Positions 36,401 through 42,400 of a DNA stretch of 64,000 bases are shown here, piece by piece. The DNA is from Escherichia coli O157:H7 (GTDB lineage: Bacteria > Pseudomonadota > Gammaproteobacteria > Enterobacterales > Enterobacteriaceae): the NCBI RefSeq assembly GCF_013167455.1, contig NZ_CP038328.1. One strand, given 5' to 3'. The position numbers are program-made. The number at the start of each line of letters is the position of its first letter. Position 1 is the first letter of the stretch.

Positions 36401-39400
36401 CGGCTTCGTTTTCTCCTTTCGCCCGAGCTTCCTGCGGGGTAATACCGGTAATTAATACTGCTCCAGGCTGGGGTAAATAGTCATCCGCGGGCTTGCAGTA
36501 AAAGACTTCGGGTTCGCCGATGACATTGAATTCGTCATCGGTGCGAATGGCTGCGAACTGTGCAGGGCGATCTAACGCGGGGTGCGTGCCAAAGGTTTCG
36601 TAATCGTGAAAGAGGAAGGTAGGTTGCTTATCTGTGTCTGTCATTGTCTAGCATTGTCCAATGTAGTTAATTAACTGTCTGTTATAACTCGAAAAACAAC
36701 CCTTTTTTCACCTGAGTATGTCTACGAACGTCAAATATAGTTGTTTACTGTGCGCTGTTGTCCATGTGATATTGTGTACCAGATGTGTACCAAACCATTA
36801 TTTCTGAGCGTACCAAATATTATTTATGGCTATAAGCGACACAAAACTGCGTACTATTTATGGTAAACCATATTCTGGCCCACAAGAAGTGGCTGATGCC
36901 GATGGCCTCAGCGTACGAATTTCACCGAAGGGGGTCATCCAGTTCCAGTACCGCTATCGCTGGCATGGCAAGCCTAATCGACTTGGGCTTGGTCGATACC
37001 CATCCCTGTCTTTGAAGGATGCCAGACAGATCACTGCTGACTTGCGAAAGCTCTATTTCTCAGGAACGGATCCACGCACTTATTTTGAAGAGAAGGTGGA
37101 GAACTCCATGACGGTCGCCCAGTGTCTCGACTACTGGTTCGACAACTACGTCTCTACAACTCTCAGAGAAAAGACCCAAGCACTTTACCGATCAACGGTT
37201 ATGAAGCGCATGCATGACGCCTTCCCTAATCGTCCGGCATCTTCTATCACGGTTAAGCAATGGGTTGACCTGCTTACCGAAGAAGAAAAAGATAATCCAC
37301 GCCGAGCAAGGCAGGTGCTAAGTCAACTAAGATCAGCAATTAGTTGGTGCATGCGGCGTCAGTTGATAGATAGTTGCGCAATTATGAGCATCCAACCAAG
37401 GGACTTCGGCTCCCGCGCTGAGGTAGGGGATCGGGTACTGTCGTATCACGAACTGGCTAAGATCTGGCTTGCTATTGAAAGAAGCCGTGCGTCTACGTCA
37501 AATAAGCTCCTTCATCAGATGCTTATGCTGTGGGGGGCGAGGCTCTCAGAGCTTAGGCTGGCAACAAAGACAGAATTTGACCTGCTGGACAACGTATGGA
37601 CCGTACCGAAAGAGCATAGCAAGATGGGTAATGTTATCCGCCGTCCAATCTTCGATCAAATTAAGCCTTTTCTCGAAAAGGCCATGACAACGTACAATGA
37701 TGTTCTTTTCCCTGGAGAAGACATAAACAAACCGATCAGCATCGCTGCAGCTAACCGATTCGTAAATAGAATAAGGGGAGGGATGGATCTAGGTTACTGG
37801 CGAACACATGATTTCAGAAGAACGCTTGTTACACGTCTGTCCGAGATGAATGTCGAGCCTCATGTTACTGAGCGAATGCTCGGTCATGAACTTGGCGGGA
37901 TAATGTCCGTATACAATAAACACGACTGGATAGAGGCTCAGCGCAAAGCGTATGAGCTTCACGCTGATAAATTGTTCTGGCACATCAGGAGCATTTCTGA
38001 TTAACGCCACCGTTAAGAATCCACCCTTCAACAGCTTCACGAAGGTATGATTTGGGGTGGGTTCTGACTGGCTTCGGAAATCCGTGCCGTTTGGTATAGT
38101 TCCAGATTGTCTGACGTGATGAAACACCGAGCTTGTTCATCACTTCTTTCTCAGGAATCAGGCTGGTATCGGTCATCTTAATTCTCCAGGCAAAAAGAAA
38201 CCGCCATATAGCGGCTCTATCAGATATGAACAGGCCTCATCGAGTGTGAGGCGTTAGTCCTTGCGTAGCTCGCTGATTCTTCTGTAAGTCTCTGGTGCTT
38301 TGTTTCCGTGTATCTTCATTTCAGACTTCAACAGAGCAACGAGGGAATCCCATTCGTTGAGGATTCCTTTGAATGCCGGAACGCGCTTTGCAACCTTGTC
38401 GAATGAATCTCTGATTTCTGGAATCTGCTCAACAAGTGCAACGCATCGTCTGAAATCGGCTGCGTCATGTGGAGCACCGAAGCCATGACCATAGATATTC
38501 TTTTTCAGGCCACATGCGATTGAGGCAAGAGTTGCGCTACTGATGCCGACATCGCCAGTTGATTGCCATTTCAAAACCTTCATAGCCAAATCTGACATTT
38601 CTTGTCTCCATAAAACAAAACTCGCCGTAGCGAGTTCAGATAAAAGAAATCCCCGCGAGTGCGAGGATTGTTAGTTGCGCTCTGCTGCTGCCTTAGCCAT
38701 TACCATATCCACACAATTTCACCAGACATGATTCTCGCAATCACTATCATCACCAAAGTGATAATCACAACTTTAACTGGCGGCATCATTCACCATCCTG
38801 CTGCGGTGCTGCTGGATATACTTTTCTCATCCAATGCGTGGCGTCATGAATAACGAACTGATATTCATCATCAGTAAACATCGAGCCATCCCACTGTAGC
38901 CCGTCAAGAACACCTCTGGATGGAGAGAATACCCAGATATCGAAATCGTATTTCTCCGGCATTCGCTCACTACAGCTTATCCAACCATCCGGAGTTACCG
39001 GAGAGTTGCCAGCCTTGCGCATGGCAATCTCCATGATTTCAACCATATCTCCTGGTGGAATTTTACAATGCTGACCAATATGCCTCTGCTGCCTGGCATA
39101 TTCGAGGATGTGCTCCAGCTTGATACGATTAATCATGATTTATCTCCCTGAAGCATGGCTTCGCGGCAGTCGTTCCAGCCTTCAGCATAATCACTATACG
39201 CAAGAGGCCAACCGTTTCTGTATTCACGCGGCAACTTATCAGGCACTACCAGCGCTGGCGGCGCGGAGAATAGTGGTTTAGGTGATATTTCCGCACGTTT
39301 TGCGTATGCTTCAACTGTGTCAGGGTTAAACAGGATTATGTTTTCACCGCATTCTCACGCTATCGGTTCTGCTTCCAGCGATGCCAGTGCAATTTCATAA

Positions 39401-42400
39401 GCACGGCGCTCAATATTGTCTCGAACGTCCAAGCTGCCTATGCGCTCTTTGATTTCTTTAATCAGTTCTTTGTCGGTAATAGTGGTCATGCCGCGTTTCC
39501 TTCTTTCTTATTAACAATTACACCGTCATATATTTCATTAAGGTGCCCTCTCAACTCCATGCGCCTTAATGCAGACAACATGTAATCGCATTCACTTATT
39601 TCCAGTAAATGGCTTATCGTCAGGATTACCCCAACAGCAATTACCCTTGGGCCACCCATGTACTTTCCGTACTCGTTAACAACGTGAAGTAATCCCCAGC
39701 CAGGTGGTAAATCCTCAATTGAAATAATTCCCGGCTCACTAATAAAGAATCGCCAGTCGCCCATTCCAAGAGACGGATTTTTACGAAAACGCTTTTTTCT
39801 ATCTGCCAACAAGTCAGCACGAGAACATTTCGCCTCTATCAGGCATGATGCTGAATTTCTGAATCCCATAGCATCTGGCTGTTCTCCGGTACTGGTTACA
39901 GCTATAAAGCGGTCATGAAAACAAACCTTGAAACCGTTGCGCTTAAGGAACTTGTACGCAATCTGACAGAGTTCGCGGTGTGTTAACGCCATATCACTCT
40001 CCTTTGATGCGAATGCCAGCAAGCCAGTTTCTTATGCCGATATATTCAGCGTTCCTGAAACCGCTTTTTACATATATAAATGGCAAGCGAAGATTGTGAC
40101 CATTGACTGCCAGGTAGTCTTTACAACCCTGTTCGGTGAAACAGCAGGTAACGAATTCATCAATATCTTTCACAGCAACGCGCCGCCATTTTTCTGGTGG
40201 CTCTCGAAAGTTTTCATGAAGTAGCTCGAGACGACGACTATGGCGTTTATTGGCTTCATTGCCATCTTCGTCAACCCAGACAATCCGGTCATGGTCATAA
40301 TCAGCATCAACAGCGATTTCGCGCTTTTGATACACACAAAACATGGGATCTGACGTTATTCGATTGTCCTGTGTTCGAATATTTTCACCGATGATGCCAA
40401 ACGAATCTGGTGCAGATTTTGTCTGCATCTCTTCGATACGTTCAGCCATCGCAGCACACTCTTCAAAGTTGCTTAATGCTTTTCGCTCCCATTCGGCGCA
40501 TTGTTTTTCCAGTTCTGCTATGCGCTTACTTCCATCCGCGATTACTCCCTCGTAATATTCACGCTGCTCGTTGAGTTTTGATTTTGCTGCTTCAAGCTCA
40601 ACACGCAGCTTCCCAACCGTAAGCGCAATCCCCTCGTTCTCCTGGTCGCGGCGTTTGATGTATTGCTGGTTTCTTTCCCGTTCATCCAGCAGTTCCAGCA
40701 CGGTAGCCGGGTTAGCCTCTGCTATGAATTCAGCGTTTGCATAAGCCTGAGCATCTGATTCAATCAGGCAGTTAACATGACATTCCGCAATCACGCCACC
40801 GGGTTCTCCTTTCCATTTTTGGCAAACAAAAACTCCTGTTAAATTGCCGTGCTGGTTAACAGATGTATGCCCTACGATGTAGTTTCCTTTAGTTGCTTTT
40901 TCTGCCTTTTCACGCAGTGCCTGATAATTAATTTCGCTCACTTCGAACCTCTCTGTTTACTGATAAGCTCCAGATCCTCCTGGCAACTTGCACAAGTCCG
41001 ACAACCCTGAACTGCCAGGCGTCTTCGTTCATCTATCGGATCGCCACACTCACAACAATGAGTTGCGGATACAGTCTGGTAGTTCAGGCGACGCATTTTT
41101 ATTGCTGTATTGCGCTGTAATTCTTCAATTTCTGATGCTGAATCAATGATATCTGCCATCTTTCATTAATCCCTGAATTGTTGGTTAATACGCTTGAGGG
41201 TGAATGCGAACAATAAAAAAGGAGCCTGTAGCTCCCTGATGATTTTGCTTTTCATGTTCATCGCTCCTTAAAGACGCCGTTTAACATGCCGATCGCCAGA
41301 CTTAAATGAGTCGGTGTGAATCCCATTAGCGTTACCGTTTCGCGGTGCTTCTTCAGTACGCTACGGCAAATGTCATCGACGTTTTTATCCGGAAACTGCT
41401 GTCTGGCTTTTTTGATTTCAGAATTAGCCTGACGGGCAATGCTGCGAAGGGCGTTTTCCTGCTGAGGTGTCATTGAACAAGTCCCATGTCGGCAAGCATA
41501 AGCACACAGAATATGAAGCCTGCTGCCAGAAAAATGCATTCTGTTGTTGTCATGCCGGGTCTCTCTCGTTTGCTTCTGCTTTCGCCGCCATCATTTCCAG
41601 CTTTTGTGAAAGGGATGCGGCTAACGTATGAAATTCTTCGTCTGTTTCTACTGGTATTGGCACAAACCTGACTCCAATTTGAGCGAGGCTATGTGCCATC
41701 TCGATACTCGTTCTTAACTCAACGGGAGATGCTTTGTGCATACAGCTCCCCGTTTATTATTTATCTCCTCAGCCAGCCGCTGTGCTTTCAGGGGATTTCT
41801 GATAACAGAAAGGCCGGGAAATACCCAGCCTCGCTTTGTAACGGAGTAGACGAAAGTGATCGCACCTACCCGGATATTATCGTGAGGATGCTTCATCGCC
41901 ATTGCTCCCCAAATACAAAACCAATTTCAGCCAGTGCCTCGTCCATTTTTTCGATGAACTCCGGCACCATCTCGTCAAAACCCGCCATGTACTTTTCATC
42001 CCGCTCAACCACGACATAATGCAGTCCTTCACGCTTCATACGTGGGTCATAGTTGGCAAAGTACCAGGCATCTTTTCGTGTCACCCACATGCTGTACTGC
42101 ACCTGGGCCATGTAAGCCGACTTTATGGCCTCGAAACCACCGAGCCGGAACTTCATGAAATCCCGGGAGGTAAACGGGCATTTCAGCTCAAGGCCATTGC
42201 CGTCACTGCATAAACCATCGGGAGAGCAGGCGGTACGCATACTTTCGTCGCGATAGATGATCGGGGATTCAATAACATTCACGCCGGAAGTGAACTCAAA
42301 CAGGGTTCTGGCGTCGTTCTCGTACTGTTTTCCCCAGGCCAGTGCTTTAGCGTTAACTTCCGGAGCCACACCGGTGCAAACCTCGGCAAGCAGGGTGTGG

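Follow-up and report, generated by a model that had tools for sequence, protein, structure and literature searches.

In phage lambda, the exo-xis region modulates the lysis-lysogeny decision, and its deletion leaves phage replication possible; in Shiga toxin (Stx) phages, exo-xis genes are reported modulators of lysogeny and induction (PMC10834534). We analyzed a 64,000-nucleotide (nt) stretch of Escherichia coli O157:H7 (RefSeq assembly GCF_013167455.1, contig NZ_CP038328.1), hereafter the window, which carries a lambdoid Stx2c prophage, and describe here a small gene of its exo-xis region, located on the minus strand at 39133..39489 and interrupted by an in-frame TGA. The closest described relatives of this 357-nt gene are alleles of other Stx phages. 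VT1-Sakai H0067 (BAB19623.1), WP_000207903.1, and Stx2c_WGPS8_05 represent the same gene at the same position, one base apart: these intact alleles encode a 118-residue protein of phrog_5117 and have TGG at codon 45, where the window has TGA. The pseudogene alleles of phages 2851, 1717, Stx2a_WGPS4, and WGPS6 and of RefSeq O157:H7 genomes are 100% identical to the window over the gene, TGA included, and only the state of the upstream neighbor differs (intact in 1717, a 5-bp deletion in 2851, 5- and 4-bp deletions in the window).

More remote similarity is observed with YfdT from the cryptic prophage CPS-53 and with L0065 from phage 933W (P22 EaA-like). Both are, like the product of the focal gene, prophage early-region accessory proteins, and both carry the same N-terminal module of about 40 residues (MTTFTDKELIKEIKERI..RRAYEIAL), but their sequences are unrelated to the focal protein beyond approximately residue 40. 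Overexpression of yfdQ and yfdR with either yfdS or yfdT inhibits replication initiation (PMC4776307). The likeness to YfdT and 933W L0065 is mosaic and does not amount to orthology; functional transfer is therefore unjustified.

An in-frame TGA interrupts a small exo-xis gene

The coding-like frame extends on the minus strand from an ATG at 39489..39487 to a TGA at 39135..39133 and comprises 118 sense positions plus the stop. It opens with MTTITDKELIKEIKERIGSLDVRDNIERRAYEIALASLEAEPIA, which ends at a premature TGA in codon 45 (39355..39357, minus strand); past this stop, the same frame remains open for 73 further codons, ECGENIILFNPD...GWNDCREAMLQGDKS, down to the terminal TGA. The mutation concerns position 39355, an A on this strand and a G in the intact alleles, where the codon reads TGG (Trp). 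The residual open frame (39358..39489, minus strand) encodes a 44-residue N-terminal fragment, M1–A44, predicted to form a helical hairpin. The 73 codons and the stop on its 3′ side (39133..39354, minus strand) still show no difference from the intact allele and are out of reach for terminating ribosomes. The initial annotation of this locus had located the internal TGA exactly and was fair in its estimate of about 120 codons. It was also right to start the gene at a minus-strand ATG, although one base off (39488 instead of 39489), while the stop that it placed near 39125 lies about 8–10 bases from the actual one and its 43-residue product has to be lengthened to 44 residues.

The frame is coding and not a chance open reading frame, because it matches annotated 118-residue proteins at all positions except codon 45 and matches phrog_5117 over its full length. 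It is tightly packed between its neighbors, as had been noticed, with ATGA overlaps at both ends (minus strand). The stop of the upstream gene overlaps the focal start at 39486..39489, with an AAGGA Shine-Dalgarno-like motif a few bases 5′ of the ATG, and the focal stop overlaps the start of a DUF551 gene at 39133..39136, the latter gene having its own GGGAG Shine-Dalgarno-like motif. The description as an early-left gene is likewise correct, the locus being the exo-xis region of a lambdoid Stx prophage.

Intact orthologues carry Trp at position 45

Alignment with orthologues, the check proposed in the initial annotation, revealed TGG at codon 45. In VT1-Sakai H0067, WGPS8 gene 05, and O157:H7 strain 2149, the sole difference from the window in 357 nt is at gene nucleotide 135, where G replaces A and makes codon 45 TGG, the Trp45 codon of the intact 118-residue alleles. 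A fourth orthologue, from O157:H7 strain CEC13091, has TGG at codon 45 plus one extra substitution relative to the window. WP_000207903.1 is the protein of both strain 2149 and strain CEC13091 and is identical to the translated window frame at 117 of the 118 positions. The proposal of a nonsense mutation is thus borne out by TGG in four orthologues, three of them differing by that base alone. The suggestion that the gene was intact recently agrees with the comparison to strain 2149, in which the codon-45 base is the only substitution across about 1.5 kb.

The Trp residue is also retained farther away. It is kept in an O145 gene whose N-terminus differs (...EAEPIAWECGEN...), and it occupies this place in all aligned relatives with the WECGENIILF module, including Salmonella proteins at 47–60% identity. 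Orthologues ending at this position as genuine short proteins, which would have spoken for a naturally short product, were not found: residue 44 is the last one in none of the 40 aligned relatives. Since Trp is present in all the more distant homologues that have the WECGENIILF module, TGG is the ancestral codon, and TGA is derived from it by one G-to-A transition.

The window copy is a pseudogene member of the phrog_5117/WP_000207903.1 orthologue group. The uninterrupted frame of this group is broken in the window by the TGA at codon 45, a sense codon one substitution away is present in the four close intact orthologues, and neither recoding signals nor a suppressor were detected by the Rfam scan, the RNA fold, and the inventory of window tRNAs described below. 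The explanation that we favor, and consider very probable, is a simple loss of function through a recent nonsense allele (W45*) of a small Stx2c-prophage accessory gene. A G-to-A transition converted Trp45 TGG into TGA in this early-left, pL-transcribed exo-xis gene; ribosomes would start at the ATG 39489, stop after 44 codons, and release the N-terminal helical hairpin only. The remaining 73 codons, which specify a β-hairpin/helix module and the conserved GWNxCRxAML C-terminal helix, would not be translated, except where tRNA-Trp misreads the UGA at its low background rate and thereby restores the wild-type residue. The allele would then have spread by clonal descent as well as through inter-prophage recombination. 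The most likely setting is neutral decay with selection relaxed, the exo-xis region being dispensable for phage growth; the released fragment would be without function, and downstream genes would be little affected.

Distribution and existing annotation of the TGA allele

The spread of the allele was surveyed with a 61-nt probe centered on the mutated base, searched against complete genome records. The probe matches perfectly in 108 E. coli records, all 16 sampled rows being O157:H7 or unlabeled, and with one or two mismatches in 273 records, the sampled rows of which include O157:H7, O145, and O111 strains. Among phages, five that were sequenced independently (1717, 2851, Stx2a_F349, WGPS4, and WGPS6) have the TGA allele, and VT1-Sakai, YYZ-2008, phi330, WGPS8, and phiSTEC801 have TGG. 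Phages 1717 and 2851, as well as many O157:H7 chromosomes, have the identical 357 nt, TGA included. The allele also occurs in a second prophage backbone: in strain NZRM3614, a prophage at mlrA (yehV) contains, at NZ_CP032793.1 1777168-1777524, a copy 100% identical to window positions 39133-39489, followed by a different variant of the DUF551 gene (363 nt versus 351 nt in the window). Recombination between lambdoid prophages residing in one host is the best explanation for the TGA allele at mlrA.

The interrupted gene is ordinary and already known, as an annotated pseudogene copy of a known, uncharacterized phage protein family. In RefSeq, the same 357 nt carry the Prokaryotic Genome Annotation Pipeline (PGAP) label "hypothetical protein, pseudo, internal stop", "pseudogene" is the term used in the records of WGPS4 and WGPS6, and the GenBank record of phage 2851 divides it into EP2851_04 and EP2851_05, a "C-terminal half" and an "N-terminal half", respectively. 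A literature search for phage 2851, Stx2c, and O157 returned nothing but unrelated typing work. The importance of the finding is low beyond annotation hygiene: the gene should be labeled as a pseudogene (W45*), as in RefSeq, and not as two short open reading frames.

Protein family and predicted structure

The repaired 118-residue protein matches phrog_5117 with an E-value of 5.6e-58, residues 1–117 aligning to positions 1–125 of the 125-position profile. The function of phrog_5117 is not known, and the same holds for all PHROG matches of the protein. No Pfam domain was detected in the repaired protein at E ≤ 0.1. Membership in DUF551 (PF04448) was considered and rejected, as this domain (E-value 4.9e-10) belongs to the product of the downstream gene. 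A database search retrieved 1644 relatives, which form a mosaic family. The N-terminal helix varies among them, an IALASLEAEP(I/V)A motif is almost invariant, and the middle is occupied by alternative modules; an AAPPxxVVPD linker and the GWNxCRxAML C-terminal helix complete the family layout, with a fused DUF551 domain in many members.

The AlphaFold2 model of the repaired protein has a predicted local distance difference test score (pLDDT) of 77.6 and a predicted template modeling score of 0.48. It is made up of a helical hairpin (residues 6–39), a β-hairpin (44–53) that begins at about Trp45, a helix (56–66), and a C-terminal helix (97–113). No significant match to a solved structure was found (best PDB E-value 1.0), and the BFVD matches are uncharacterized phage proteins only. 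As the hairpin comes first in this layout, the truncation removes everything past the N-terminal hairpin.

The truncation could also have left a working protein. The 44-residue hairpin might act as a small protein that binds the partner of the N-terminal module, or interferes with paralogues that share the module, and might have been retained or spread because it is useful. Indeed, the stop is positioned at the module boundary, residues 1–44 being the part common to YfdT, 933W L0065, and many DUF551 fusion proteins; these residues are predicted to form the helical hairpin with a block-mean pLDDT of about 78–88, and the allele is frequent and present in two prophage backbones. However, the module stands alone in none of the 40 aligned homologues, and apart from the stop, the TGA alleles examined all match the intact allele, an observation that points to one recent origin followed by clonal spread. 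In addition, the neighboring gene is decaying too, and the lack of degeneration in the codons downstream of the stop fits a recent origin equally well. We therefore regard a functional truncated allele as unlikely.

Recoding, suppression, and restart

An Rfam scan of positions 38600-40100 at E ≤ 10 gave no match at or near the premature stop; it returned three sub-threshold matches only, all in the intergenic stretch 38608-38818. The 71 nt that span the stop and continue 3′ of it have an unremarkable predicted fold compared with shuffled sequence (z = -1.14). The window encodes no suppressor tRNA: its only tRNAs are Met/Ile(CAT), Arg(TCG), and Arg(TCT), and these three anticodons rule out a suppressor borne by the phage in this stretch. 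Programmed readthrough was rejected as well, the stop being confined to otherwise 100% identical alleles, the diverged relatives with the module having Trp, and a stimulatory structure being absent from the region.

Unprogrammed leakage is a different matter. Among the stop codons of E. coli, UGA is the leakiest and is usually misread by tRNA-Trp, such that the inserted residue would be Trp and the product the exact wild-type protein; with the 73 downstream codons still intact, the mutation would then amount to a knock-down rather than a knock-out. Against this, the region contains neither a stimulatory structure nor a known readthrough element, the base following the UGA is a G, which is not the weakest UGA context, and the stop, unlike programmed sites, is not conserved beyond near-identical alleles. 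The background of UGA misreading by tRNA-Trp is low, and at most a few percent would be expected. Readthrough at a level that matters thus seems distinctly improbable. Of the three outcomes offered in the initial annotation, the nonsense mutation stands, the short product (of 44 residues) follows by default, and readthrough is left without positive support. That the TGA is a sequencing or assembly error, or encodes selenocysteine, has a negligible probability, as nothing favors either except the in-frame TGA itself: a base-call error is excluded because the same base is found in the 108 complete genome records and in five separately sequenced phage genomes, and selenocysteine was rejected given that no SECIS-like hairpin, other Rfam match, or significant fold lies downstream and that orthologues have Trp and not Cys or Sec.

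The only in-frame start-like codons 3′ of the TGA are GTG 39246 (codon 82), TTG 39234 (codon 86), and ATG 39156 (codon 112). Since the first of them is the GTG at codon 82, separate translation of the C-terminal half is unlikely, and we did not retain a re-initiated product of the kind annotated in phage 2851, where the "C-terminal half" would need CTG as its start. An internal promoter created by the mutation (GGGAAT to GAGAAT, spotted by eye) was likewise discarded: no promoter-like site was found on the minus strand, and there are fewer sites overall than in shuffled sequences.

Loss of function or selected allele

Nothing in the data argues directly against simple loss of function, but several observations qualify it. 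The allele is common, with 108 records, and resides in two prophage backbones, at sbcB and at mlrA, which could reflect hitch-hiking and recombination but could also reflect a selective advantage. The N-terminal module bounded by the stop is widely shared, and the 44-residue fragment could be a folded unit. Finally, the intact protein has neither a Pfam family nor a solved-structure match, and its "loss of function" is tied to no phenotype. A selected TGA allele could take the form of a free 44-residue hairpin, or of a full-length protein throttled to readthrough levels, that alters the exo-xis tuning of Stx2c lysogeny and induction. This idea would account for both the 108 genome records and the move into the second backbone at mlrA; we nevertheless give it little credence. 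A phenotype is conceivable in view of the reported modulation of lysogeny and induction by exo-xis genes (PMC10834534), and nothing in the present data points to one.

Decay of the upstream neighbor

The gene immediately upstream of the focal one (39486..39992, minus strand) encodes a P7 Upf89.0-like protein with an E-x-K motif (phrog_631/phrog_9263). It is intact, with 171 residues, in phage 1717, strain 2149, and WGPS8. A 5-bp deletion truncates it to 134 residues in phage 2851, FDAARGOS_293, and NZRM3614. The window has this 5-bp deletion in common with phage 2851 and, in addition, a 4-bp deletion about 80 nt upstream; the deletion sites lie between 39677/39676 and between 39595/39594, with a single-nucleotide polymorphism (SNP) at 39675. 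Together, the two deletions restore the frame, giving in the window and in strain 17B6-2 a protein of 168 residues, of which about 30 are scrambled. The net deletion of 17B6-2 is as in the window, with one base different at the junction; this difference corresponds either to one deletion plus a SNP or to two independent frame-restoring deletions. In VT1-Sakai and CEC13091, an independent 2-bp deletion truncates the protein to 58 residues.

These independent frameshifts in different lineages suggest relaxed selection, and two adjacent genes, the focal one and its upstream neighbor, have thus been hit repeatedly across different lineages. The allele states imply a putative order for the window lineage, from a WGPS8-like state with both genes intact, through a 1717-like state (TGA) and a 2851-like state (TGA and the 5-bp deletion), to the window (TGA and the 5- and 4-bp deletions). 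The base at 39355 and the indel states of the neighbor thereby make up a small ordered marker series, which could help to type Stx2c prophage sublineages. Even in strain 2149 (NZ_CP017436.1, locus 1291-1469), which has the intact 171-residue frame, the 5′ portion of the Upf89-like gene bears the PGAP label "frameshifted", and the same label is found in L002 (locus 2619-2797). In strain 2149, the label looks like an annotation artifact, apparently modeled on the 58-residue VT1-Sakai-type protein WP_001356547.1.

Prophage setting and other features of the window

Strain 17B6-2 of E. coli O157:H7 (NZ_CP038414) is collinear with the window and shows only 4 differences from it in 64 kb. Positions 1 to about 36.6 kb comprise the colanic-acid and O157 O-antigen clusters, the his operon, and sbcB. 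The lambdoid Stx2c prophage adjoins sbcB and begins with int at 36826, followed by an AlpA-like regulator, the exo-xis (early-left) genes, exo/bet/gam, kil, cIII, the repressor region, O/P-like genes, the nin region, Q, three tRNAs, stx2c A and B, and the lysis genes. Within the exo-xis region, the focal gene has the P7 Upf89.0-like gene and an Ea22-like gene upstream and the DUF551 gene downstream. The order on the pL-transcribed strand (Ea22-like ... focal ... DUF551/xis/int) is conserved in the window, 17B6-2, 2851, 1717, WGPS8, and VT1-Sakai.

The downstream neighbor (38786..39136, minus strand) is intact and encodes a DUF551-domain protein of 116 residues, recognized by its Pfam match. 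Below it, a 187-nt gap (38599-38785, minus strand) contains two GC-rich hairpins in succession (38669-38648 and 38637-38618) that resemble terminators and precede T-runs. This stretch also gave the weak, sub-threshold matches to the Rfam families STnc180, rsmX, and rimP leader.

Farther into the prophage, an exact 107-bp direct repeat (53414-53520 and 54344-54450, plus strand) is shared by an ORF6N-domain gene and an Ant antirepressor gene. A phage tRNA at 57647-57722 (plus strand), called "Met (CAT)" by ARAGORN and tRNA-Ile by RefSeq, and two tRNA-Arg genes lie together shortly upstream of stx2c (57983-59223). A further decayed gene of the window, a transposase pseudogene of the ISAs1 family, is present at 16738-17669 (plus strand), where cpsG and perB flank it within the O157 O-antigen cluster; according to the collinear RefSeq record, this degraded copy is frameshifted, has an internal stop, and misses its N-terminus.

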